Of a stretch of 64,000 bases of DNA, positions 3,153 through 18,078 are shown one piece after another. This DNA comes from an uncultured Lachnospiraceae bacterium. Its GTDB lineage: Bacteria > Bacillota > Clostridia > Lachnospirales > Lachnospiraceae. Where the stretch lies: assembly GCA_947631685.1 (NCBI GenBank), contig CANRMI010000004.1, forward strand, positions 23,439 through 87,438, written 5' to 3'. Made by a program: the position numbers and the translations under genes. Position 1 is the first letter of the stretch. Each line of letters opens with the position of its first letter. The notes under the pieces are model-generated. The model saw nothing but the letters and a program-made list of their open reading frames with translations, ran no database searches and had not been told where the DNA came from.

Positions 3153-3226
3153 GGACCTTTAGCTCAGTTGGTTAGAGCAACCGGCTCATAACCGGTCGGT
3201 CCTGGGTTCGAGTCCCCGAAGGTCCA
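3153..3226 (+). tRNA. tRNA with CAT anticodon, most likely tRNA-Ile2 (lysidine-modified)
   Basis: Full cloverleaf; acceptor GGACCTT/AAGGTCC, anticodon arm ACCGG-CTCATAA-CCGGT; GGACCTTTAGCTCAGTTGGTTAGAGC start matches Firmicutes Ile2 as I recall it. Confidence 0.93.
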
Positions 3227-3325
3227 CTACAGCACGAACGGTCGAACACCGTTCAAATCCGCAGCATTGCGGTATGGAAAAGTGAGGTTGGCATCATACT
3301 TGATACATCGGGGTATGATGCCGGG

Positions 3326-3445: not shown

Positions 3446-3600
3446 AGGAATTGTATAACATTTATTAAGCAGCAGACAGAGCTATGTAACAGACATGGCT
3501 CTGTTTTTTGTACCCTTTTGGGGACATAAAAGGAATTTTGACAACTGAATATGGAACCCGTCAACTCCGGAAAATCATTCAAAGAAAGGAAATGGTGACT

Positions 3601-3954
3601 ATGCGGAAAAAGAACAATACCAATTATACCATGATGAAAGGAACTATGACAATCGAAACCTTTATGGATCTGGTGAGAGATGCGCTGAAAGACCAGCTGA
3701 AAGGCTGTACGGTGGAGGTACAAGAAACAAACAAGAACAACGGAGGGATCTTTCACGGGATCCGTATCACAGAGCCGGGGAGCAGCATTGCGCCCTGCAT
3801 CTATCTGGACAAGGATTACAAAGATTATCAGGAGGGAAAGGATTTAATACAACACAGCGTCAGAGCGTATAGAGAACAGTCTATGCGCTTTATTTTTTTG
3901 AAAAAGAGCAGAGAATATGGTAGAAACCAAAAACGAGCAACAGCCCCAAAGTAA
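3601..3954 (+). pseudogene. N-terminal fragment of a DUF5688-like protein
   Basis: FMDLVRDALK..VEVQETNKNNGGIFHGIRITEPGSSIAPCIYLD..Y.DY..G matches the family N-terminus; similarity stops after about 80 aa. Confidence 0.55.
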
Positions 3955-4124: not shown

Positions 4125-4490
4125 AGAAGCGACTTAACAACAGAAGACCCTGAAAGCGCAAAGGAGTGGGCTGTAATCAACGGACGGGAAGGAAGTAATA
4201 TTTGCAATCAGTGTGAGATTGACTTTGAAGGGTTGAACATTCTTCATCTTAATCAATTTTGTAAGGAAGCAAACAACAACAGCAACAAGTACGATGATAT
4301 TATTTTAGATTGGGCAGCGGATATTTATGTAATGCTGCAATGGAAATATAATTTCCCGTCAGCTTCTATCAGCCTTGCAATCCCTGCTGAAGAAATGATA
4401 AAGGCGTATTATCCATTTCATGAAACATCGTATAATAACGCTTGTGAAAAGCTCTATCATAAATATCTTGAAGAGGGTGATACTGAATGA
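4125..4490 (+). pseudogene. Chimeric remnant: DUF3990-like (ADP-ribosyltransferase clan) internal fragment fused in frame to the C-terminus of its usual partner gene
   Basis: Frame open from 4125 with no start codon before the TTG at 4233: TEDPESAKEWAVINGREG..N.CEIDFEGLNILHLN, then DWAADIYVMLQWKY...PAEEMIKAYYPFHE. Confidence 0.45.
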
Positions 4491-4918
4491 AAATAAACTC
4501 TTTTCGTAACGAACATTTCTTTCTTAGTAACTTTTATGAAGCTCCTGTCACTTATGACGGATTGACATATCAGAATAATGAGGCAGCGTTTCAGGCTCAG
4601 AAGTGTGCAGACCCCAAAGAGCGTGATGCGTTCACTGCTATGAATCCTTCGGAAGCCAAAAGAGCAGGGCGCAGAGTTCAGCTCAGAAAAGATTGGGAAC
4701 AGATAAAGGTCTCGGTCATGGCTGATATTGTCAAGGCAAAGTTTGAACAGAACAGTGACCTTGCAGACAGACTTCTTGCAACAGGTGACGCATATCTTGA
4801 AGAAGGCAACGATTGGGGAGACCGTATCTGGGGAACTGTAAATGGAAAGGGCGCGAACTGTCTTGGAATTATCCTTATGGACGTTAGAGAAAAAATAAGC
4901 GCAGAGAAAGAACATTGA
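4487..4918 (+). CDS. NADAR family protein (YbiA/DUF1768-like N-glycosidase / ADP-ribosylhydrolase)
   Basis: FLSNFYEAPV, EAAFQAQK, AKRAGR..LRKDWE, KFEQN, LLATG, LEEGNDWGDRIWG, NCLGIILM. Confidence 0.92.
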   Translation: MKINSFRNEHFFLSNFYEAPVTYDGLTYQNNEAAFQAQKCADPKERDAFTAMNPSEAKRAGRRVQLRKDWEQIKVSVMADIVKAKFEQNSDLADRLLATGDAYLEEGNDWGDRIWGTVNGKGANCLGIILMDVREKISAEKEH

Positions 4919-5008
4919 TAAGGTCATTGATGATAAGCAGGAGTTATCTTATGATGAAACTCTTGAGATGATCGGAAAAGCATAGAAAAAAATTTTTTAA
5001 AAATAGGG

Positions 5009-5037
5009 TTGACAATGAAATTCATTCCTGATATAGT
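5009..5037 (+). promoter_or_regulatory. Near-consensus sigma-A promoter with extended -10
   Basis: TTGACA-17 nt-TATAGT with TG at -15/-14 and an AT-rich UP-like tract upstream. Confidence 0.8.
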
Positions 5038-5136
5038 GTCTTTTGCTGATGACGAGAGCGGAGTGCTCAAAAGGGCTAAGCTCTGTGTCCGGAATAGAAT
5101 AAACTCTGTATCAGGAACATAATTTATAAGAAGATC

Positions 5137-5194
5137 AGAGGCGACTTGAATCATAGGGAAATTATACCCATTTGGTTCAGGCCGCCTCTTTTTT
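5137..5194 (+). terminator. Long hairpin plus T tract inside the clpP-like leader (attenuator or sRNA terminator)
   Basis: AGAGGCG(5137-43)/CGCCTCT(5183-89), with CTTGAATCA/TGGTTCAGG and GGG/CCC inner pairing, followed by a T run. Confidence 0.7.
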
Positions 5195-5360
5195 GCGTGC
5201 CCGGAAAAGTCATTCACATTGTACTTTGAAAACTTCATAGCCGTCCGAAGAAATATCCCCTCCGGGGAAGCAGCTCATTCAGCTTGCCAAGGGGTGAAAA
5301 CGCTGCTGGCGCCGCGCAGGGCCCGGGGGCAGGAGGATATTCGGGACAACGGCAGAAAAA

Positions 5361-5426
5361 CAGTAAAAAAGCAGTAAAAGCAATAAAAGCAGTAAGGAGC
5401 AGTAAGGAGCAGTAAAAGAGCAGTAA
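5361..5426 (+). repeat. Seven short direct repeats CA(G/A)TAA with about 10 nt period just upstream of the clpP RBS
   Basis: Copies start at 5361, 5372, 5381, 5390, 5400, 5410 and 5421. Confidence 0.85.
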
Positions 5427-5449
5427 AAAATAAGAAGGGAGGAGTCAAT

Positions 5450-6040
5450 ATGTCATTTGTAGACGAAGCAAGAATCATCAAGGAATCATCCCGGGGGTAT
5501 GAGTTGATCCCCATCCGGGACGAAATGCTCTCTCACCGGGAGGTGGAACTGACCGGGGAGGTAGACGCGGATTCTGTAAACTCCCTGATTCGGGAGCTGC
5601 GTTACCTGCAGCGGCAGGATCCGGAGGGTGAGATCACCATGTACATCAACAGCCCCGGAGGCGGAGTGGACAGCGGCCTGGCTCTGTATGATGTGATGCA
5701 GGCCATCAGCTGCCCCATCCGGACGGTCTGCGTGGGGCTGGCAGCCTCCATGGCAGCTTTACTCTTTATTTCAGGCGACCGGAGAGATATGCTGCCGCAC
5801 AGCCGTCTGATGATCCATGATCCGCTGATCGTCCAAACCGGAGGCAGCGCCCTTCGCCTGAAGGCGGTCAGCGATGACCTGATGGAGACCCGGCAGATCA
5901 CCGCGAGGGTAATCGCGGAGCACTCAGGCAAGAGCCTGGAGGAGATCCTGGAGAAGACCGCCACCGACAGCTTTTTCCGGGCAGAAGAGGCTGTGGCCTT
6001 TGGCCTGGCAGACAACATTATCACCAGTTTTGAAAAATAG
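5450..6040 (+). CDS. Accessory ClpP-like serine protease subunit
   Basis: MYINSPGGGVDSGLALYD, GLAASMAA (Ser), LMIHDP (His), TDSFF..EEAVAFGLAD (Asp); catalytic triad intact. Confidence 0.92.
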   Translation: MSFVDEARIIKESSRGYELIPIRDEMLSHREVELTGEVDADSVNSLIRELRYLQRQDPEGEITMYINSPGGGVDSGLALYDVMQAISCPIRTVCVGLAASMAALLFISGDRRDMLPHSRLMIHDPLIVQTGGSALRLKAVSDDLMETRQITARVIAEHSGKSLEEILEKTATDSFFRAEEAVAFGLADNIITSFEK

Positions 6041-6057
6041 TAAAGGAGGAATGGAAA

Positions 6058-7368
6058 ATGTTTGAGAATGTGAAATCCAACCGCATCCTGGCGAAGGGAG
6101 TTACCGCCAGCAATGACACCTGGGTTACGGGGATCAACAACAACGACCTGCTGGTCGGTCCTTCCGGCGGGGGCAAGACACGGGGCTATGTAATCCCCAA
6201 CATCCTTCACGCTCAGGACAGCCTCATCGTCACGGATACGAAAGGAAATCTGTACCGCTGGTACGGAGATTATCTGAAGGGACTGGGTTACACGGTGATG
6301 CACCTGGACTTCACCGATATGTTAAACACTTCCTGGGGCTACAATCCCCTGGACTATGTCCGGGAGTGCCAGGATCCGGAAACGAACCGGGATGGGGACT
6401 ACTATAACGAGCAGGATGTAAAGAAAGTGGCCAGGGCTATCTGTCCCTGCCAGAATGCCAAGGAACCCTATTGGGATCAGGCTGCGCAGATGTATCTGGA
6501 AGCCATCCTCCTCTATGTCCTGAATGAGCTTCCGGATGAGCAGCACGATCTGTACGAAGCATACACCTTTTTGACAAAAATGGGGTCGAGTGGTCTGGAG
6601 AACATCATCGAGGAATATTTGGCAGTTCATCCCCAGAGCGCCTTTGCCCGGAAGATCGGAATGATCAGACAGAACGAAAAGGCAGAAAAGATGGATGCCA
6701 GCATCAAGGGGATTCTGGCGCAGCATCTGGATGTGGTGGCATACCCCGGAATTCGGAGGATGTTCCGTATGGAGCAGCAGGCGGATCTGGAGGCCTTCCT
6801 TAAAGGAAAGACGGCTCTGTTCCTTTCCGTCAGCGATTCCGACCGCAGCCAGGATGCCTTGGTAAATCTCTTTTACACCCAGGCGCTGCAGTACCTCATG
6901 ACTGCGGCAGACCGGCAGCCGGACAGCCGCATGCCAATCCCGGTGCGCTTCATCCTGGATGATTTCAGTACCAACACCCTGATCCCGGATTTTGACAAGA
7001 TCATTTCGGTCATCCGTTCCCGGGAGATTTACGTCAGCCTTGTTGTCCAGAGCTTTTCCCAGCTGGAAGGTCTCTACGGCAAGGCCGGAGCCCAGACCAT
7101 TATCAACAACTGCGACACCTGCTTGTATCTGGGCGGAACGGATGTCAATACAGCCCAGTACTTTGCCGAAAAGCTGAACCGGCAGCTCTCCACGGTGCTG
7201 GATCTTCCCCTGAACAGTATGTTTCTGTTCACCCGGGGCGAAAAGCCCCGTCAGGTCCAGAAGTACGAACTGGATCAGGATAATACCTATCGTAAATTGA
7301 TGAACTCCCGTAAAAGGGAGGCGAAACCCGTTGACGCTGGAGAAAGGAGCGAGATATATGAGCGATAA
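6058..7368 (+). CDS. VirD4/TraG-like ATPase without N-terminal membrane anchor
   Basis: Walker A GPSGGGKT, IVTDTKG, YNPLDY, YWDQAA, Walker B-like FILDDF, SVIRSREI..SLVVQSFSQL..LYG, NNCDT.LYLGG; Walker A at residue ~35, no hydrophobic helices. Confidence 0.85.
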   Translation: MFENVKSNRILAKGVTASNDTWVTGINNNDLLVGPSGGGKTRGYVIPNILHAQDSLIVTDTKGNLYRWYGDYLKGLGYTVMHLDFTDMLNTSWGYNPLDYVRECQDPETNRDGDYYNEQDVKKVARAICPCQNAKEPYWDQAAQMYLEAILLYVLNELPDEQHDLYEAYTFLTKMGSSGLENIIEEYLAVHPQSAFARKIGMIRQNEKAEKMDASIKGILAQHLDVVAYPGIRRMFRMEQQADLEAFLKGKTALFLSVSDSDRSQDALVNLFYTQALQYLMTAADRQPDSRMPIPVRFILDDFSTNTLIPDFDKIISVIRSREIYVSLVVQSFSQLEGLYGKAGAQTIINNCDTCLYLGGTDVNTAQYFAEKLNRQLSTVLDLPLNSMFLFTRGEKPRQVQKYELDQDNTYRKLMNSRKREAKPVDAGERSEIYER

Positions 7369-8497
7369 TGAAAGAGTACGTCTGACACTGGAGGAACGCC
7401 TGGCGCTGGCCGCGCGGTCCAAATCGGCCACACCCGAGGCCGCCGCCGCAATGGTGCGGCGGTTCTATGAGCTCCCCGCAGGCTGCATCTTTTGCGGAAC
7501 GTCCGATGTAGATGCCATGAACGAATTGACCGGCGAGTTTTGGGACGTTCCCAGGGTGGATGTGGACAGCTACCGGGGGTTCTGCCCTTCTTTCCTGATG
7601 GCGATGGAGTATGACAATGATCTCGTCCTGGGATCCTGGCGGCCGGAGGATTTTGATCCTGACCGGCTTCTGCTGAGCGTCCGAGTCAACAATGCCCTGG
7701 TCCTTCTGGGGGAAATATTGCTGGATCAGGTCATGGGCCGCCAAAGGCACAAGGAGATCTACCATTCTCTTCGTATGACACTGCGGCAGTATCTGGACGC
7801 CCTGACGGGACCTGATTTTCTGCGGAGCGAGTCTGAGACAGAGTGGTTCACGGCCTGGCGGGAGAAAATCCTGGAGAAAATGGACGGAGATCAATCTCTG
7901 GCGGAAGCGCTGGCCGGCGTTTTGCGGCGGTATGTGAGCGCATGGGAACCTTTTGATCGTCTGAACCATATCCTGCACTGCCTGGGCGGTCTGGCTTTTC
8001 ATCTGGAGAAGGAAGGGACGAGGTACGATGTCGACCGCTGCTCGGACGAGGATGCTGCCCTGGTGCTGACGACTTCCCGGACGGAGAAAGCGAAAGCAGC
8101 CTGGCGCTTTCGGAGAGCTCTCCGCAGGTTCGGTATCGGAAAGAACCGGCGGGAGCTGCCCAAAGCTGACCAGGAATGTCAGGATCCCCGGGAGTACCTT
8201 CTGAAGCTGGCTCTGGAATACGCTCCGGATCTGCCGGATCCGGGCAGTGAGATGGAAGCGAAAACCCTGCGGAGCCAGATCTTCATCCCTCATTGGAGCC
8301 GCGATCTTGACGCATTGGGGAGGCTGTTGGAAAATGCGCCTTTTCCGGAGTTTGAACCTTTCCTGAAGGGATGCCCGGACCGGGACCGGCTGGCTGAAGC
8401 CATACGGGAGATCAATGCGGCGGTGATGGATCTGTATATGCTGTGGGTGGAACCCTATCTGTGGCTTGAGGGGACAGCCGCGCATGGAAACAAGTAA
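7358..8497 (+). CDS. Hypothetical protein, 379 aa, translationally coupled to the VirD4-like gene
   Basis: AAGGAG RBS at 7344-49, 11 bp overlap with the upstream ORF; no recognised motif. Confidence 0.75.
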   Translation: MSDNERVRLTLEERLALAARSKSATPEAAAAMVRRFYELPAGCIFCGTSDVDAMNELTGEFWDVPRVDVDSYRGFCPSFLMAMEYDNDLVLGSWRPEDFDPDRLLLSVRVNNALVLLGEILLDQVMGRQRHKEIYHSLRMTLRQYLDALTGPDFLRSESETEWFTAWREKILEKMDGDQSLAEALAGVLRRYVSAWEPFDRLNHILHCLGGLAFHLEKEGTRYDVDRCSDEDAALVLTTSRTEKAKAAWRFRRALRRFGIGKNRRELPKADQECQDPREYLLKLALEYAPDLPDPGSEMEAKTLRSQIFIPHWSRDLDALGRLLENAPFPEFEPFLKGCPDRDRLAEAIREINAAVMDLYMLWVEPYLWLEGTAAHGNK

Positions 8498-8501
8498 AAG
8501 A

Positions 8502-8533
8502 ATTGGCAAAACACGAACGGATTGGCAAAACAC
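8502..8533 (+). repeat. Perfect 13 bp direct repeat ATTGGCAAAACAC x2
   Basis: 8502-8514 and 8521-8533, directly upstream of the -35 box of the ncRNA/RT promoter. Confidence 0.9.
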
Positions 8534-8541
8534 AAAGTGTC

Positions 8542-8570
8542 TTGTCCCGCATGGAAAAACATGATATAAT
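8542..8570 (+). promoter_or_regulatory. Sigma-A promoter for the ncRNA-RT unit
   Basis: TTGTCC-17 nt-TATAAT with extended TG; predicted start near 8577. Confidence 0.8.
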
Positions 8571-8576
8571 AACATT

Positions 8577-8765
8577 ACCTTATCCGATAGGCGGTAAGGG
8601 CGGTATTTTTCATCATTTACGATGAATCTGCTTTCTGATTTATGTACGATTTATCAGAACTTTATGCAAACAGGACAATAGTGTTCATGTACCTGCCTGC
8701 CAGTTTAGGGAAGTTGTCCCCCGTGCTGGCAGGCATGATGCATCTATAGGGGGATTTTAGGAAGA
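8577..8765 (+). ncRNA. Putative RT-associated structured ncRNA (~190 nt)
   Basis: Five consecutive hairpins: 8578-99, 8609-26, 8633-59, 8673-86, and 8694-8735 (perfect 10 bp TGCCTGCCAG/CTGGCAGGCA), lying between a promoter and the RT start. Confidence 0.65.
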
Positions 8766-10175
8766 ATGGAAAGGCAGAAAAGATATAACCGGTGCAGTAA
8801 GGACGGCGCTTGTGCCGAATGTGCGCAGAACGATCAGTGCGGCGCATGGGTGTCTTTTGTGGACAAGCACGGCACGCAGAAAGGCTATGCGCATTTTGAC
8901 AGGCGGGTATCCCTGGAAATGGATTCCGTTCGGGATTATGTCATGGACAGGGAAAAGGTGGCTGCACACGGTTTCTATCCGTTTATACACTTTGAAAAGA
9001 AAAATTCGCGCTACGGCAGGAAAGGCCCGAAAAAACCAAGGGAACTGTATTACTGTTCCCACATGGACCGCTGCATTTACCAGAGATATGCGTTTCTGCT
9101 GAACTATTTATACAACATCAGAGCAAAGGAAGAAGGGATCGACCGGGTGGCGACTGCCTACCGGAACAATCTGGGAAAGAACAACATCGACTTCGCGAAA
9201 GAGGTGTTCGACGCCATCCGGGGGATGGGGAAATGCCTTGTAATCGTGGGGGATTTCACGGACTTTTTTAACAGGCTGGAGCACCGCTACCTGAAGCAGA
9301 GGCTGTGTGAACTCCTTGGCGTGGAGCGCCTGCCGGAGGATTATTTTGCCGTATTCCAGAATATTACCCGCTTCGCAGGCTGGGACTGGGAAGACATTGT
9401 AGAGGCGGCGGGAGAATCCATAAACGAGAAGGGCATCAAAAAGAAGCTTAACCGGAAAGAAACGGTCCTCACAAGGCAGCAGTTTCTGGATAATAAGAAA
9501 TATATCCGGAAGAACACATCGGGAATAGGTATCCCGCAGGGATCTCCGATCAGTGCCGTACTGGCGAACATATACATGATGCGGTTTGACCGGACGCTGC
9601 AGGAGTATGTGTCAGGACAGGGCGGGATCTACAGACGCTATTCTGACGATTTTCTGATCGCGGTTCCCATTCGTGGAGAGGGCGAGGCTAAGAAGCATAT
9701 CGGGCGTATCTTTTCTTACATCCATGAGATGGATGGACTGATCGAACTGCAGGAGGAAAAGACTTCCCTGTATCTGTTTGAACAGGGGCGGATACGTTCG
9801 TACCCGTCGAAAGATCCGGCCTTTATCGATTACCTTGGGTTCTGGTTTGACGGTGAGAATATACGGATACGGCCCCGCTCCATTACAAAGTATTATTACA
9901 GGATGCGGAGGAAAGCGCGGACGGTCGGGCGAAGCAGCGGTCTGTCTCTGCATGGGAGGCATATCTCGTCTAAGAACCTGTACCAGATCTATTCCCATAA
10001 TGATAAGAAGCGGACGTTTATCGACTATGCCAAAAAGGCCAGACATATGATGGATCTGCGCGATCCGGAAACAGACGCGGTGATAAAAAGGCACAAGCAG
10101 AAGATCGCGCAGGCGGTGAAAGCCGGGATAACGGCTAAAAAACATTTGGTGAAAGAGGTGAATGAAGATGGCTGA
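8766..10175 (+). CDS. Reverse transcriptase, DRT2/UG2-like defence-associated class
   Basis: GYAHFD, HGFYPF, RELYYCSHMDRCIY, NNIDFAK..FD, GDFTDFF, GIPQGSPISAVLANIYM, YRRYSDD (9639-9650), YLGFWFDG, SITKYYYRM; collinear with KpnDRT2 motifs as I recall them. Confidence 0.85.
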   Translation: MERQKRYNRCSKDGACAECAQNDQCGAWVSFVDKHGTQKGYAHFDRRVSLEMDSVRDYVMDREKVAAHGFYPFIHFEKKNSRYGRKGPKKPRELYYCSHMDRCIYQRYAFLLNYLYNIRAKEEGIDRVATAYRNNLGKNNIDFAKEVFDAIRGMGKCLVIVGDFTDFFNRLEHRYLKQRLCELLGVERLPEDYFAVFQNITRFAGWDWEDIVEAAGESINEKGIKKKLNRKETVLTRQQFLDNKKYIRKNTSGIGIPQGSPISAVLANIYMMRFDRTLQEYVSGQGGIYRRYSDDFLIAVPIRGEGEAKKHIGRIFSYIHEMDGLIELQEEKTSLYLFEQGRIRSYPSKDPAFIDYLGFWFDGENIRIRPRSITKYYYRMRRKARTVGRSSGLSLHGRHISSKNLYQIYSHNDKKRTFIDYAKKARHMMDLRDPETDAVIKRHKQKIAQAVKAGITAKKHLVKEVNEDG

Positions 10176-10235: not shown

Positions 10236-10255
10236 TAGAAAGTAAAACAGGATAT

Positions 10256-10329
10256 GGCCTAGTGGCTCAGTTGGTTAGAGCGCCGCCCTGTCACGGCGGA
10301 GGTCGTCGGTTCGAGTCCGATCTGGGTCG
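10256..10329 (+). tRNA. tRNA-Asp(GTC)
   Basis: Cloverleaf; anticodon loop CTGTCAC; GGTTCGAGTCC T-arm. Confidence 0.95.
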
Positions 10330-10355
10330 TAAAGCGGGTGTACCGCATCCGCTCA

Positions 10356-10428
10356 GGGGTCTTAGCTCAGCTGGGAGAGCATCTGCCTTACAAGCAGAGG
10401 GTCATAGGTTCGAGCCCTATAGGCCCCA
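10356..10428 (+). tRNA. tRNA-Val(TAC)
   Basis: Cloverleaf; acceptor GGGGTCT/AGGCCCC; anticodon loop CTTACAA. Confidence 0.95.
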
Positions 10429-10455
10429 TAATTTTTCTAAATGATCTGCGTACCG

Positions 10456-10539
10456 GCTGGTGTGGCGGAATAGGCAGACGCAAGGGACTTAAAATCCCTC
10501 GATGGCAACATCGTGCCGGTTCAAGTCCGGCCACCAGCA
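10456..10539 (+). tRNA. tRNA-Leu(TAA)
   Basis: Cloverleaf with long variable arm GATGGCAACATC; anticodon loop CTTAAAA. Confidence 0.95.
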
Positions 10540-11859: not shown

Positions 11860-14295
11860 CTATCCCATAGTAACCTCTACATGGTATTCCGTCTTGCCCT
11901 TTTCATAGGGAATGACACAGCCGTCCACGGGCTTGCCGTCCACGGTCATGGAAACGACACCCTTTTCCACACCATTAGGGTTCTTCACTTCGATGTGATA
12001 GATGCCTTCCCGGAAGCTCCTGGTCAGCTTGAAGCTGCCGAAGTCTTTGGGCACGCAGGGATTAATGGAGAGCCCTTTGTGAGTAGGGTATACGCCCAGA
12101 ATGTACTGGGAGATATTGACAAAGGTCCATGCTGCGGTACCGGTCAGCCAGCTGTTCTTGGCTTCGCCGTGGAACTTCGCGTCGCGGCCTGCGACCATTT
12201 GGGAGTAAACATAGGGCTCGGTGCGGTGGATCTCGCTGAACTCTTCCACATAGGCAGGACAGGTCTTTTTGTAGATCTCAAATGCCCTGTCGCCGCGGCC
12301 GATAACGGTTTCCGCAATGGATACCCAGGGGTTGTTGTGGCAGAAAATTCCCGCGTTCTCCTTGTATCCGGGGGGATAGGAGGTAATCTCGCCCAGCTCC
12401 AGGTGGTACCTGGTGTAAGCGGGCTGTAAGATCATGATACCGTACTTGGTATCCAGTCTTTCCTTAACGGAATCCAGCGCCTTCTTAGCAAGGCCCTCTT
12501 TGACACCCACGCCTGCCAGAACGCAGAAGCCCTGGGGCTCGATATAGATCTGGCCTTCGTCGCATTCCTTGGAGCCTACCTTATGGCTGTAAGCGTCGTA
12601 AGCGCGGACAAACCATTCGCCGTCCCAGCCGTCTTTTAAGAGGGCGTCATACATAAGGGAAACTTCCCTGCGCGCTCTCTCGGCTTCCGCGGTATCATTT
12701 AACAGCTCAGCTAACTGAGCATATTCTTCACCGTATTTCACAAACATGCCGCCGATGAATACGGATTCCGCAACGGGCCCTTCGGAGGGACCGAATGTCT
12801 GGAAGGACTCGCCAGGATGCTCTGAAAAGCAGTTTAAGTTCAGACAGTCATTCCAGTCTGCCCGGCCGATCAGAGGCAGGTTGTGAGGCCCCTTGTGATT
12901 GATGATATAGTCAAGGGAACGTTTTAAGTGCTCCATTAACGAGGTGGCCTTGGACATATCGTTGTCATAGGGAACCGTTTCCGTCAGGATGGAAATGTCT
13001 CCGGTTTCCCTTACATACGCGGAGGTGCCGGCAATCAGCCACAGCGGATCGTCATTAAAGCCGCTGCCGATGTCGGAATTGCCCTTTTTGGTGAGGGGCT
13101 GGTACTGATGGTAAGCGCTGCCGTCCTCAAACTGGGTGGAAGCAATGTCGATGATACGTTCCCTTGCCCTGTCGGGAATCAGATGAACGAAGCCCAAAAG
13201 ATCCTGACAGGAGTCACGGAAGCCCATGCCTCGTCCGATACCGGATTCATAGTAGGACGCGGAACGGGACATGTTAAAGGTTACCATACACTGGTACTGG
13301 TTCCAGGTATTTACCATGCGGTTGACCTTGTCGTTGGCGGATTCCACAGTATATTTGGAGAGGAGCTCTTTCCAGTATGCTTTCAGTTCCGCGAAAGCAG
13401 CGTCCACGCCGGCGTCGGTTTTGTAGTGCTCCAGCATGGCGAAAGCGGGCTTTTTGTTGATCACGCCGGGAGCTTCCCACTTTTCGGATTCGGGATTCTC
13501 CACATACCCCAGAACGAAGATGAAACTTTTGCTTTCACCCGGTGCCAGGGAAACGTTGATCTGATGTGCCGCAATGGGAGACCAGCCGCTGGCCATGGAA
13601 TTGCCGCAGGCACCCTTTTCAACGGCTTCAGGCAGGTCGGCGCCCCGGTACGCCCCCAGAAACTCGTCTCTGCTGGTATCGAAACCGTCCACTTTGGCAT
13701 TGACGGAATATACGGCGTAGTGGTTGCGGCGCTCCCTATACTCGGTTTTGTGGAAAATGGTGGAATCCACTACCTCCACTTCACCGGTGCTCAGATTACG
13801 CTGGAAGTTCTTCATATCGTCGTCCGCGTTCCACAGACACCACTCTACATAGGAGAAAAGCTTTAAATCCTTGGGAGAAGAAGCATGATTGGTAAGGGTG
13901 ATCCTGCTGACCTCACAGGAATCCTTCATGGGAACGAAGGTCAGGACGGAAGCCTCCACATCATTCTTTCTGCCGGTGAAACGGCTGTAACCAATACCGT
14001 GACGGCACTCGTAGGAGTCCAGCTCCGTCTTGGAGGGCTGCCAGCCGGGGTTCCAGACAGTGCTGCCGTCCTTTATGTAAAAATATTTGCCGTTGGTATC
14101 CGCCGGAATATCGTTGTAGCGGTATCTGGTCAGACGTAGCAGCTTGGCGTCCTTGTAAAAGGTGTAGCCGCCGCAGGTGTTGGAGATCAGGCTGAAGAAA
14201 TCATTACAGCCCAGATAGTTGATCCAGGGCAGCGGAGTCCTGGGGGTTGTGATGACGTATTCCTGATTCGCATCATCGAAAAAGCCGAATTTCAT
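11860..14295 (-). CDS. cbp: Cellobiose phosphorylase (GH94)
   Basis: [78 protein letters not shown]; 811 aa. Confidence 0.93.
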
Positions 14296-14324
14296 GGTAG
14301 TTTCTCCTTTACTGATTATTTTAA

Positions 14325-14336
14325 GTAAACGTTTAA
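14325..14336. promoter_or_regulatory. LacI-type operator upstream of cbp (related sites near 14491-14502 and 15579-15590)
   Basis: Palindromic core TAAACGTTTA; related AAAACGATT and CAAGCGATTT sites near the divergent lacI and ABC starts. Confidence 0.5.
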
Positions 14337-14527
14337 GCAGGAATGCCCCTGACTTATCTAAAATTATACACAAGAAAGAAAATGAATGCAATAAAAATAT
14401 GAAAGGGAAAAGAGTTGAAAAGAAAAAGTTGCATAAAAAAATTTTGAAAAGTATTGCAAAAGTATCAATATTGGTGTATAGTATATGTACGAAAACGATT
14501 AAGCTATGGCAGAAGAGGGTTGTGGCG

Positions 14528-15529
14528 ATGACATCGATGAAAGATATTTCCAAGGTGTGTGGTGTCAGTATCGCCACCGTAAGCAAGGCGCTGAACAACC
14601 ACAAGGATATTGGCGAGGACACCAAGCAGTATATCCGCAGGGTTGCCAAGGAGATGGGGTATTATCCCAATTCCTCCGCCAGAGCTTTAAAGACGCAGCG
14701 CACCTACAATCTGGGCGTGCTTTTCGCGGATGAGGCAGGCAGCGGGCTTACCCACGATTACTTTGTCAACATACTGGAAGCCTTTAAGCGTACCGTGGAA
14801 GAGAAAGGATATGACATTACCTTTATCAACACGGGAGCCCAGACCAGAAGTTATCTGGAGCACTGCAGATACCGGGATTTTGACGGTGTGGCAGTGGTGT
14901 GCGTGGATTTTTACGACAGACAGGTGGAAGAGCTGGTGCACAGTGACATACCCATCGTGACGGTGGATCACTTTTTCCCGGGCAGAGCCGCCGTGATTTC
15001 GGACAATGTCAGAGGTATGCGGGATCTGCTCACCTATGTGCACAGCAGAGGCCATCGCAGGATCGCCTATATCCACGGCGCGGATTCCCATGTGACTAGG
15101 AACAGGCTGACGTCTTTCTTTAACACGGCGGAAGAGCTGGGGCTGAACATTCCCGACGCGTACATAAAGGAAGCGGCCTACAGGGATACGGACGGAGCCG
15201 GACGGGCAACAGAAGAGCTGCTGGGACTGTCAAAGCCGCCCACCTGTATTCTCTATCCCGACGATTTTTCCTGCTTCGGGGGCATGAATGCTATCCGCAA
15301 GAGGGGACTTCGGATCCCAGAGGACATATCCGTAGCCGGTTACGACGGCATACGGGCCGGCAGGCATATCGAGCCCTGCCTGACCACGCTGGTACAGGAT
15401 ACGGAACGGATTGGCGCGCGGGTTGGCGAGAAGCTGATCAGCCTGATAGAAAAGCCCAGGTCCACTATCATCGAGCAGATTGTGATCGACGGCAGGGTAT
15501 ATGAGGGCCGGACGGTGGGCAGAGTCTGA
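14528..15529 (+). CDS. LacI-family transcriptional regulator
   Basis: [45 protein letters not shown]; promoter TTGCAA-17-TATAGT at 14454-14482. Confidence 0.95.
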
Positions 15530-15631
15530 AAGCGCCCCGAACCAAAGTGATCTGATATGAGATCTGATATTAATTTCGCGCAAGCGATTTTAATATAAAC
15601 TATCAACCTATTTTAAAGGGAGGAAAAAGTA

Positions 15632-17065
15632 ATGAAGAAAAAAGCATTAGGTATTTTGCTTACTGCTGCAATGATGGCAACGATGGTTGCTGGCTGCGGC
15701 GGCGGCAGCGATACCCCCGCAACAACTCCTGCAGACACGACTCCTGCGGAATCTACTCCTGCAGAATCTACTCCTGCGGAATCTACTCCTGCAGAGACGA
15801 CTCCTGCAGACGGTGAAGGCTTAGCGTATACGGGTACTTTAACCCTTATGCACTACTCCACTTCCGAGGAGAGCCAGGGTAACGGCAGCTCCGATGGTAT
15901 CCGTACCATGATCGCTGAGTGGAAAGAAGCTAACAGCGGCGTCACCTTGGAAGAGAACGTAATGTCCAATGATGACTACAAGACTCAGATCGCGACTCTG
16001 GCAGCAGCAGATGACCTGCCTGACGTATTCATGCTTCAGGGTATGAACACCGCGGCATGGGCTGATCAGGGCCTGATCATGGATCTGACGGACGTTATAG
16101 CGAACTCTCCTGACAGCGCGAACTACGATACCAACCTGTTTGGACCTTTCACCACCGCTGATGGCAAGATTTACGCACTGCCTACCGTATCCGGTGGTAC
16201 CTGTACCGTAGTTATGTACGATAAGAGAGTTTGGGGCGACGAGTTCCCCAGCACCTGGGCAGATGTAGAAGCTAAGGCTGCTGACATCGCTGCTGCAGGC
16301 CAGACTCCTATCGCATTCGGTAACGGCGGTCAGTGGAACGCAAACTCTGACTTCCTGTCCTGCTTAGGCGACAGATACACCGGTGAAGACTGGTTCTGGA
16401 GCCTGGTAAACAAGGAAGGCGCGGCATTTACCGATGCTGAGTTCGTAGCGGCACTGGCTGAGATGCAGAGACTGTTCGTAGACACCGACCTCTTCAACGC
16501 AGATTTCAACTCTGTTACCAACGAGGACGCAAGAGAGTACTACATCTCCGGTGATGCAGCAGCATTCATCGGCGGTAACTGGGACGTTTCCTATGTAGGC
16601 GCTACCCTGAAGGAAGCTGGCGACGAGCTGTATGAGAATACCGGTTTCGCGGTTCTTCCTCAGTCCGCAGACGCAACACATCAGAGAAACAGCCAGAACG
16701 GTGGTTTCGGTTATGGTGTCGCGCTCAACGCTAAGTTAGCGGATGATCCCGATAAGCTGGCAGCAGCTATCGACCTGGCTTACAAGCTCAGCGGCGCTGA
16801 TTTCGCTAACTATGTAGCAAGCAACTACGCTCTGGGTGGTTTGGTTAAGGTAAGCGACGTAGACTTCAGCGCATTTGACGCTTGGGATGTTGATTTCTAC
16901 AACTTCTCCTACGTTGACAACCCGACCTGCCCGATCTATGACTCTTTCATCAACAGCGCAGTTTGGAACGTACTGAATGCAGATATGCAGGCAATGTTAA
17001 ACGGCTCCATGACTCCTGAAGATGTTGCAGCAAACGCACAGGCAGCATACGAGAGCAACTATTAA
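15632..17065 (+). CDS. Sugar ABC transporter substrate-binding lipoprotein
   Basis: Lipobox MVAGC, Thr/Pro-rich linker, DDLPDVF, GKIYALP, AAAFIGGNW. Confidence 0.9.
   Translation: MKKKALGILLTAAMMATMVAGCGGGSDTPATTPADTTPAESTPAESTPAESTPAETTPADGEGLAYTGTLTLMHYSTSEESQGNGSSDGIRTMIAEWKEANSGVTLEENVMSNDDYKTQIATLAAADDLPDVFMLQGMNTAAWADQGLIMDLTDVIANSPDSANYDTNLFGPFTTADGKIYALPTVSGGTCTVVMYDKRVWGDEFPSTWADVEAKAADIAAAGQTPIAFGNGGQWNANSDFLSCLGDRYTGEDWFWSLVNKEGAAFTDAEFVAALAEMQRLFVDTDLFNADFNSVTNEDAREYYISGDAAAFIGGNWDVSYVGATLKEAGDELYENTGFAVLPQSADATHQRNSQNGGFGYGVALNAKLADDPDKLAAAIDLAYKLSGADFANYVASNYALGGLVKVSDVDFSAFDAWDVDFYNFSYVDNPTCPIYDSFINSAVWNVLNADMQAMLNGSMTPEDVAANAQAAYESNY
15725..15814 (+). repeat. Six 15 nt tandem repeats encoding the TPA(E/D)x linker
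   Basis: ACTCCTGC(A/G)GA units every 15 nt. Confidence 0.9.
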
Positions 17066-17184
17066 GTGAAAGCTTTCGCGGAGCTTTGCAAAGCAAAATA
17101 ATCATGCGGTACCGGTCAGTTCTGGCCGGTACCGTAATTATTAAATAGAGGGTATAGTAAAGTAAAGTAAGAGGAGGAAGAGGG

Positions 17185-18078
17185 ATGTTACAGGCCATAA
17201 AACCTAAAAAGCGAGTGGTGTTCGCGTACCTGGCAATTCCCACCATACTGTTTATTTTCGCGGTATTCGTTCCGCTCATTACCGCTCTGGTCAACAGCTT
17301 TTATGAGTGGAAAAGCGGCCCCAACAAGACTTTCAACGGTCTTACCAACTATATTACACTGATGCATGATTCTACTTTCTGGCTGTCCTTCCGCCACAAT
17401 CTATTTTTGGTGGCTGTCTGTATTATAGGCCAGATAGGTATCGCGTTTATTCTGGTATTGATGATCAATTCCAGGCTTGTGAAGCTGAAAGGCATTCACA
17501 GAACTTTCGGTTTCTTCCCCAGTACGATAGCGGCAGTTTCTATCGGTTTTATCTGGAAAATGGTATACGACTATAACCGTGGTATTTTAAACTGGTTTTT
17601 AGGCGTAATTGGACGTGAGGATTTACAGCAGGTATGGTTAAGCAATGAGAAGCTGGTTATGCTTCTGGTAGCCATCCCCCTGGTGTGGCAGTGGATCGGT
17701 TATTACATGGTAATCATCCTTTCCGCTATTTCCTCCATTGATACGGAAATTTTTGAGGTGGCGGAGTTAGACGGCGCCAACGCGGTTCAGAGAGCGATCT
17801 ACATAGTACTTCCCCTGATCAAGAATACGCTGCTTGTCTGCGTCACCCTTTGTATCGCAGGTAATATGAAAGCCTTCGATAATATTTACGTTATGACCTC
17901 CGGCGGCCCCGGTAAGGCTTCCATGGTTATGGCAATGTACGGTTACAATGTTTCTTTCGCGGAAAACAACTTAGGATATGGTAGTACGATTTCCGTGGGT
18001 ATCTTTGTGATGAGTTTGCTGGTTATCGGTGGTTCCCAGTGGATCATCGGCCTGCTGACAAAAGATAAAGAAGCGTAG
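17185..18078 (+). CDS. Carbohydrate ABC transporter permease
   Basis: Multiple TM helices; EAA-type loop FEVAELDGANAVQ. Confidence 0.92.
   Translation: MLQAIKPKKRVVFAYLAIPTILFIFAVFVPLITALVNSFYEWKSGPNKTFNGLTNYITLMHDSTFWLSFRHNLFLVAVCIIGQIGIAFILVLMINSRLVKLKGIHRTFGFFPSTIAAVSIGFIWKMVYDYNRGILNWFLGVIGREDLQQVWLSNEKLVMLLVAIPLVWQWIGYYMVIILSAISSIDTEIFEVAELDGANAVQRAIYIVLPLIKNTLLVCVTLCIAGNMKAFDNIYVMTSGGPGKASMVMAMYGYNVSFAENNLGYGSTISVGIFVMSLLVIGGSQWIIGLLTKDKEA

Follow-up and report, generated by a model that had tools for sequence, protein, structure and literature searches.

What does a ClpP-family protease do beside a soluble relative of the VirD4 coupling proteins, in a genomic island where conjugation genes were looked for and not found? 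The question is raised by a three-gene cassette at positions 5450-8497 of a 64,000-nucleotide stretch (hereafter the window, numbered from its first letter) of the genome of an uncultured Lachnospiraceae bacterium (assembly GCA_947631685.1, contig CANRMI010000004.1, positions 23,439 to 87,438 of the forward strand). Our results show that the protease and ATPase genes are linked in dozens of genomes and are kept under purifying selection, apparently without conjugation genes at their side. The reading we prefer, to which we give about an even chance of being correct, is that the cassette would be a self-contained ATPase-protease module independent of type IV secretion systems (T4SS), most likely a conflict module in which the ATPase ring acts as the dedicated partner of ClpP. 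The three genes are the following:

5450-6040, + strand: gene 1, ClpP-family serine protease (196 aa; PF00574)
6058-7368, + strand: gene 2, soluble VirD4/TraG-family P-loop ATPase (436 aa)
7358-8497, + strand: gene 3, termed "Orph", mostly alpha-helical (379 aa from the ATG at 7358)

Open reading frames (ORFs) were called mechanically, and their products were compared with PADLOC-DB v2.0, NCBIfam release 20 and PHROGs, among other collections. The mechanical ORF of Orph begins at a TTG at position 7331; the ATG at 7358 was taken as its start. The tight coupling of the genes that had been described in an earlier reading, made from the letters alone (the sequence-only reading), holds at the same coordinates: 17 bp (6041-6057) separate genes 1 and 2, whereas gene 2 and Orph overlap by 11 bp (7358-7368), which suggests translational coupling, and a Shine-Dalgarno-like sequence lies ahead of each of the three starts. 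Long antisense ORFs over the cassette region were also considered and found unsupported, because the genes of the + strand have homologues and their ratios of non-synonymous to synonymous substitution rates (dN/dS) are well below 1.

To establish how general the arrangement is, one genome per GTDB species was scanned with a profile of the ATPase, giving 78 loci; two peptide patterns of the ATPase subfamily served to sample the loci. The carriers belong to Lachnospiraceae, Oscillospiraceae, Acetatifactor, Roseburia, Hungatella, Oscillibacter, Acutalibacter, Blautia, Ruminiclostridium and others, and since the arrangement recurs in dozens of genomes it is more than a product of chance. In 67 of 79 loci the ATPase gene is immediately preceded by a ClpP-like gene of the same orientation (median gap 64 bp; at the minimum, an 8-bp overlap), and in 6 further loci the ClpP-like gene lies downstream instead, so that the two are linked in at least 73 of 79, which bears out the recurrent clpP-virD4-like linkage that the sequence-only reading had proposed to look for. 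Six loci were scored as having no ClpP; L051 and L068 among them show a partial ClpP ORF, and only L069, from a Bifidobacterium, is clearly without one. Linkage extends from 98% down to 31% ATPase identity (the latter in L079 and L080), and the cassette is conserved in ~75 species-level genomes with its reading frames intact. When dN/dS was computed against six relatives at increasing distance (L086, L006, L007, L008, L001 and L005), the values were 0.06-0.13 for ClpP, 0.11-0.15 for the ATPase and 0.22-0.33 for Orph, the fastest-evolving of the three genes; in the comparison with the near-identical L086 the ClpP value was 0. All three genes are under purifying selection and the cassette is selectively maintained.

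Conjugation genes were looked for with phmmer, the queries being the VirB4, VirB6, PrgI, NlpC/P60, FtsK, DUF3801 and SLT proteins from two real plasmid T4SS loci. None of them had a match in the window or in 83 loci, and in a Pfam census of 145 non-redundant neighbours the 25 most frequent families included none of T4SS or relaxase type. The earlier statement that the island is devoid of relaxase, VirB4 and mating-pair genes was thus confirmed, its relaxase part by the Pfam annotation of the island genes, as no relaxase was included among the queries. The opposite pattern, in which such pairs would nearly always sit inside complete conjugation modules, was not seen, because the loci contain no homologues of the T4SS queries; the cassette appears to recur independently of conjugation genes.

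The ATPase itself differs from true coupling proteins in several respects. Gene 2 matches the Pfam families T4SS-DNA_transf (PF02534, 1e-43), PF10412 (2e-22) and PF12696 (2e-23), TraG-D_C and TrwB_AAD_bind being among the families matched, and with the NCBIfam model NF045973, "VirD4-like conjugal transfer protein, CD1115 family", it reaches 283 bits (cutoff 250). Plasmids of Paenibacillus and Clostridium botulinum encode real coupling proteins of this family, which are ~620 aa long, share ~30% identity with the window ATPase and adjoin VirB4 (CD1110), VirB6 (CD1112) and PrgI. Such proteins have ~150 residues ahead of Walker A, with two N-terminal transmembrane segments, and maximum Kyte-Doolittle 19-residue scores of 2.2-2.65, whereas in gene 2 Walker A already begins at residue 34 (G34-T41, GPSGGGKT) and the maximum is 1.10, with no hydrophobic segment, in agreement with the solubility that had been claimed for it. 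Walker B (D301-D302, LDDF) differs as well, being DDF in every ClpP-linked ATPase, down to 31% identity, and DEF in the true coupling proteins L084 and L085 and in Cag5 of Helicobacter pylori. Compared with type IV coupling proteins at large (VirD4/TraG/TrwB/PcfC), the cassette ATPase has homologous nucleotide-binding and all-alpha domains and stands above the CD1115 cutoff, but it is only ~30% identical and ~180 residues shorter, lacks the N-terminal transmembrane anchor, carries DD instead of DE in Walker B, and is paired with ClpP, no VirB4, VirB6 or PrgI homologue having been found near it. Judging by these comparisons, the ClpP-linked ATPases form a distinct clade that has lost the membrane anchor and carries the DD Walker B. 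Its naming as "VirD4-like conjugal transfer protein" through NF045973 is likely a systematic mis-annotation, because the protein has neither a membrane anchor nor a T4SS context, and annotation pipelines that apply this name wrongly flag such loci as conjugation genes.

The protease partner is likewise recognizable and divergent. Gene 1 matches Pfam CLP_protease (PF00574) over its full length at 1e-49 and, also over its full length, its best ClpP match in the PDB at 1e-38. Ser100, His123 and Asp173 align to the triad of Escherichia coli ClpP, which had been reported as intact, and are retained in 71-74 of 74 aligned cassette ClpP sequences. The protein scores below every NCBIfam ClpP cutoff, with 169 bits against 228 and 249, and 148 against 308.6 (TIGR00493 / PRK00277 being included in this test). 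In the alignment, the positions of E. coli Y60, F82 and F112, which we take to be part of the pocket receiving the IGF loops of ClpX and ClpA, are occupied by T, A and D/E respectively, while the equivalents of Y62, L114 and I90/M92/L189 stay hydrophobic. With three aromatics replaced, in a computed alignment read against the pocket residues of E. coli ClpP structures, the unfoldase-docking pocket would appear to be remodelled; the altered pocket and the sub-cutoff scores fit a protease that may no longer use canonical AAA+ partners, and such a remodelling would argue against ClpX or ClpC as the partner. The cassette resembles ClpXP, ClpAP and ClpCP in that a ClpP-fold subunit with a Ser-His-Asp triad is encoded beside a ring-forming P-loop ATPase; it differs in that this ATPase is of the VirD4 type within the FtsK/HerA superfamily and not an AAA+ unfoldase, that three aromatics of the presumed IGF-loop pocket are replaced, and that the genes are island-borne rather than housekeeping. 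The phage head-maturation profiles of PHROGs and NCBIfam are secondary matches of gene 1 (93.8 bits with model NF045542, cutoff 120), and the S14 fold is shared with the ClpP-like prohead proteases of phages, but the cassette has no capsid, portal or terminase genes nearby and is virtually absent from IMG/VR.

Orph had no match in Pfam, NCBIfam, PADLOC or PHROGs, and none of significance in a sequence-profile search of the PDB. Its AlphaFold2 model (predicted local distance difference test score, pLDDT, 81; predicted template modelling score, pTM, 0.80) is mostly helical with one hairpin, and no match at E <= 0.001 was obtained with Foldseek against the PDB and BFVD. The family is tiny (75 representatives out of 1.84 billion at E <= 1e-3), and its invariant residues are nearly all hydrophobic or structural; the sole polar ones are R14, N112, Q144 and R305, none of a catalytic type. 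About 80% of the relatives with Orph also have two unknown genes: c3 (~380-460 aa, with an acidic linker), present in 41 of 51, and c4 (~470-670 aa, with four invariant Cys), present in 38 of 51. Their position and orientation vary among some 40 loci (for example, 4497-7282 on the - strand of L001 and 5875-8963 on the + strand of L005). Neither was found by tblastn in the window, and L006, L024, L025, L042 and L048 are likewise without them. The AlphaFold2 model of c4 has a pLDDT of 84.8 and no PDB match by Foldseek; with confident models that match no PDB entry, Orph and c4 are good targets for structural and functional work. In relatives, genes encoding BspA-type LRR_5 or Sel1-repeat proteins often lie directly upstream of ClpP (for example, L003 4472-6286 and L008 7795-9309), and LRR_5 is fused to the Orph N-terminus in some proteins (L011 11541-13994; P0267), fusions which tie Orph to a repeat-domain, sensor-like partner. 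Comparison by hhalign of Orph, c3, c4 and the third genes of the distant clades revealed no relationship except that of c3 to c67. The third gene is not universally conserved, because those of the clades at ~45% and 31% ATPase identity are unrelated to Orph; by these profile comparisons the universal core is the ClpP-ATPase pair only, Orph being specific to its clade.

The surroundings of the cassette bear on its possible role. In the window it lies within a ~7-kb variable island bordered by tRNA genes, between an aldo/keto reductase gene and a PHP-domain gene, in which the truncated DUF5688 gene, the NADAR gene, the cassette and the reverse transcriptase follow one another:

3153-3227, + strand: tRNA-Met, left border of the island
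3508-3954: truncated DUF5688 gene (profile positions 2-79 of 290), between tRNA-Met and the NADAR gene, probably debris of an earlier insertion
4487-4918, + strand: NADAR-domain gene (PF08719, 2e-27)
8766-10175: DRT2-type reverse transcriptase (PADLOC Drt2, 8e-136; NCBIfam Drt2, borderline at 389.6 bits against a cutoff of 390)
10255-10539, + strand: tRNA-Asp, tRNA-Val and tRNA-Leu, right border of the island

Among the island ORFs scanned, Pfam recognised no integrase gene, and a search for att-type direct repeats at the tRNA borders found none. The remainder of the window has the content of an ordinary chromosome, with genes for chemotaxis, sugar metabolism, ClpB and two-component systems. 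Both flanking genes named by the sequence-only reading, NADAR and a defence-type reverse transcriptase, were found in place. The latter is of the DRT2 (UG2) type; as DRT2 is a single-gene, stand-alone system, the reverse transcriptase is an independent neighbour and does not belong to the operon of the cassette. NADAR matches the anti-phage NADAR models weakly (PDC-M42C, 1e-13; NF053876, 55 bits against a cutoff of 240). Window positions 4460-8469, spanning NADAR, the leader described below and the cassette, are 95.8% identical to a 4-kb block of L086 in a different genomic context, where it is preceded by smpB and followed by a 1438-aa AAA-AAA-Peptidase_M41 protein, a helix-turn-helix protein and a UvrD-PDDEXK helicase-nuclease. 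NADAR is not beside the cassette in L006, L007, L008, L001 or L005; the two move together in none but the closest relatives, and NADAR is not a general component.

The 89%-identical relative L006 has the cassette at the same tRNA-Met flank, without NADAR, and where the window has DRT2 it carries BrxA, BrxB and BrxC of a BREX system (13130-17974). The exchange of BREX for DRT2 at an orthologous locus indicates that the site behaves as a defence hotspot with exchangeable cargo, and so supports the position beside defence systems from which an anti-phage or anti-plasmid function had been suggested. Elsewhere, a STAND-type NTPase (DUF4062/AAA_16) follows the cassette in L001-L004, and an FtsH-like protein of 1409-1438 aa, which has AAA_2, AAA and Peptidase_M41 domains and matches nSTAND3 faintly, adjoins it in at least four loci, downstream in L086 (12676-16992) and L087 and upstream in L043 and L045 (4936-9165); this protein could be a partner of the cassette or a second system built on a protease. 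Other neighbours among the loci are type II restriction-modification genes, BrxA/B, and matches to IetA, SspH and PDC-M45, with WYL and Peptidase_M78 proteins in the distant clades. In the ~45%-identity clade the pair is part of an element that several genomes of Oscillospiraceae and Acutalibacter share at ~99% identity (L058, L061, L074, L089); this element (for example, L074 6362-18103) encodes PDDEXK_2, DUF3991-Toprim and two ~810-aa proteins without a Pfam match, and DnaB-like genes are found in related loci. Among 2.9 million IMG/VR contigs a single locus was detected, a copy of the same ~45%-identity clade.

Taken together, gene content and context point to a conflict role, which would most likely be immunity against phages or other mobile elements. 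In the mechanism that we propose, the VirD4-like ATPase ring would dock onto the ClpP barrel as its dedicated partner, replacing the AAA+ unfoldases of the ClpX/ClpC type, while Orph would be a specificity or sensor subunit that either selects the target to be degraded or switches the protease on; in relatives the LRR_5, Sel1, c3 and c4 proteins may share this role. Either an invader protein would be destroyed or a suicidal burst of proteolysis would follow. Possible targets are those recognised by real coupling proteins, relaxases for instance, and acting on them would amount to anti-conjugation immunity. For Orph as a sensor or adaptor speak the lack of any catalytic-type invariant residue, its fastest evolution, the LRR_5 fusions, and the LRR_5 and Sel1 genes in the same operon position. 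We infer these parts with decreasing support, from the conflict module through the ATPase ring as ClpP partner and the specificity role of Orph to targets of the relaxase type. A more novel formulation, which we regard as unlikely, would make the VirD4-like hexamer a cytosolic "decoy coupling protein" that substitutes for an AAA+ unfoldase, forms with the remodelled ClpP barrel a new class of chambered protease, and threads into it proteins bearing T4SS or phage signals (incoming relaxases, for example), recognised directly or through Orph, LRR or Sel1 adaptors, thereby providing immunity at the protein level against conjugative elements or phages.

Several observations weigh against this interpretation. 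The contact between ATPase and ClpP is presumed, and no fusion of the two was seen; on reading the consensus alignment of the ATPase no conserved IGF/LGF-like tripeptide was found, and the DD Walker B may mean a slow or switch-like turnover of ATP instead of a processive threading motor. As most relatives also carry c3 and c4, the three-gene version of the window might be incomplete, and the window sequence itself was found only in DNA runs of rabbit-gut metagenomes. The apparent association with defence islands is partial, because many loci are flanked by housekeeping genes. Finally, since the ~45% clade lies in a near-identical element across species, the ClpP-ATPase pair may have begun on mobile elements and its ancestral role could have served the element and not the host, which keeps alive an explanation by conflict between elements.

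In its developed form this last explanation holds that the pair is an accessory module of mobile elements, later domesticated, which would for instance degrade a repressor, a relaxase or rival transfer proteins after recognising a T4SS signal, the chromosomal copies being cargo or relics that still act on other elements. We consider it improbable, if not negligibly so. The homology of the ATPase to coupling proteins that recognise relaxases, the ~99%-identical element of the ~45% clade with its DUF3991-Toprim, PDDEXK_2 and DnaB-like genes, the one copy in IMG/VR and the DUF5688 fragment in the window island are all in line with it; however, no T4SS genes were found near any copy, the copies of the Orph clade are flanked by chromosomal and defence genes, and no integrase family figures among the 25 commonest neighbour families, nor was an att repeat found in the window. 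The two views also overlap, anti-plasmid immunity being a conflict function too. Somewhat less probable again is that the enzymes act separately and share a locus for the sake of co-regulation, ClpP working with the host ClpX or ClpC, or as a stand-alone peptidase, and the ATPase acting on DNA as a translocase of double- or single-stranded DNA or as a sensor. Proteins of the VirD4/TrwB type do bind DNA, and the TrwB_AAD_bind match, together with the lack of a conserved IGF-like loop in the ATPase consensus, would suit this explanation; against it stand the strict and often overlapping adjacency of the genes across deep divergence and the apparent remodelling of the canonical docking pocket in ClpP. 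The window's own ClpB-type AAA+ protein would also speak for it, but ClpB is not known to dock ClpP.

There is hardly any probability left for a remnant of a decaying integrative conjugative element or prophage, in which a head-maturation protease and a leftover coupling protein would have no present function. The truncated DUF5688 gene of the island, its location at a tRNA cluster and the matches of the ClpP-like protein to phage head-maturation profiles are what such debris might leave; nevertheless, we rule it out because dN/dS is well below 1, with purifying selection on all three genes, and the frames are intact in a cassette found in ~75 species-level genomes. An origin as a prophage or capsid protease was rejected as well: the match to cellular ClpP (169 bits) exceeds that to the head-maturation model (94 bits, below its cutoff of 120), neither capsid nor T4SS genes were found nearby, IMG/VR gave one locus only, and the tblastn matches in phage records are of at most ~30% identity and mostly to unannotated fragments.

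Returning to the ATPase-protease conflict module, its composition seems to be new. None of the three cassette proteins had a match in PADLOC, IetA/IetS and Avs included, or among the anti-phage models of NCBIfam, and full-text literature searches yielded no description of a ClpP and VirD4-like composition, in keeping with the earlier remark that no such system had been described. Among the close analogues are the HerA-effector defence complexes (Sir2-HerA, DUF4297-HerA), for which defence islands encode a hexameric ATPase of the FtsK/HerA superfamily together with an effector enzyme. The cassette shares this plan, but, as far as a comparison by description goes, its ATPase belongs to the VirD4 and not the HerA clade and its effector is a ClpP protease instead of a NADase or nuclease. 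IetAS and the protease-bearing STAND/Avs systems likewise combine an ATPase with a protease and are associated with repeat-domain sensors (LRR, Sel1/TPR); the logic is the same, but the cassette protease is an S14 ClpP rather than an S8 or trypsin-like enzyme, and its putative sensors are separate polypeptides. All the ClpP partners that we know of are AAA+ unfoldases, and a working partnership of the two enzymes would make this the first ClpP protease with a motor of the FtsK/HerA superfamily; the proposed mechanism, if true, would also give a VirD4-type coupling protein its first role outside secretion. Few anti-conjugation mechanisms are known to us, and a defensive cassette would add to gut Clostridia an immunity system that acts through proteins, maybe against plasmids. 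All this makes the cassette a good candidate for an immunity system or proteolytic machine of a new kind.

The region ahead of the cassette contains features that may take part in its expression:

5009-5037, + strand: promoter-like site (TTGACA, 17-nt spacer, TATAGT, extended TG; score 11 of 12)
5042-5225, + strand: structured 5' leader of 184 nt, ending in a terminator-like hairpin and a T-run
5352-5430, + strand: tandem array of GCAGTAA(A/G)(A/G), 7-8 copies (Tandem Repeats Finder), just upstream of the ClpP ribosome-binding site

The promoter-like site is conserved in L086 and L006, as is the leader, which is not conserved in L007 or L008. The leader RNA folds at -58.9 kcal/mol (z = -3.9; 0 of 200 shuffles fold as well) and could be an attenuator or a small RNA. 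The array GCAGTAAAA precedes the ClpP start, and some of its units resemble a Shine-Dalgarno sequence (AAGGAG); it is non-coding, because all three frames contain stop codons, and its copy number varies from the 7-8 of the window to ~5 in L086 and ~4 in L006. Leader and array together (5009-5430) could work by attenuation or by offering ribosomes several standby sites. Rfam returned no family in the cassette leader or in the region upstream of DRT2, only tRNAs. This last region, of 268 bp, comprises a 19-nt direct repeat (8497-8534), a promoter-like site (8542-8570) and a hairpin (8578-8599), and is probably the non-coding RNA template of DRT2.

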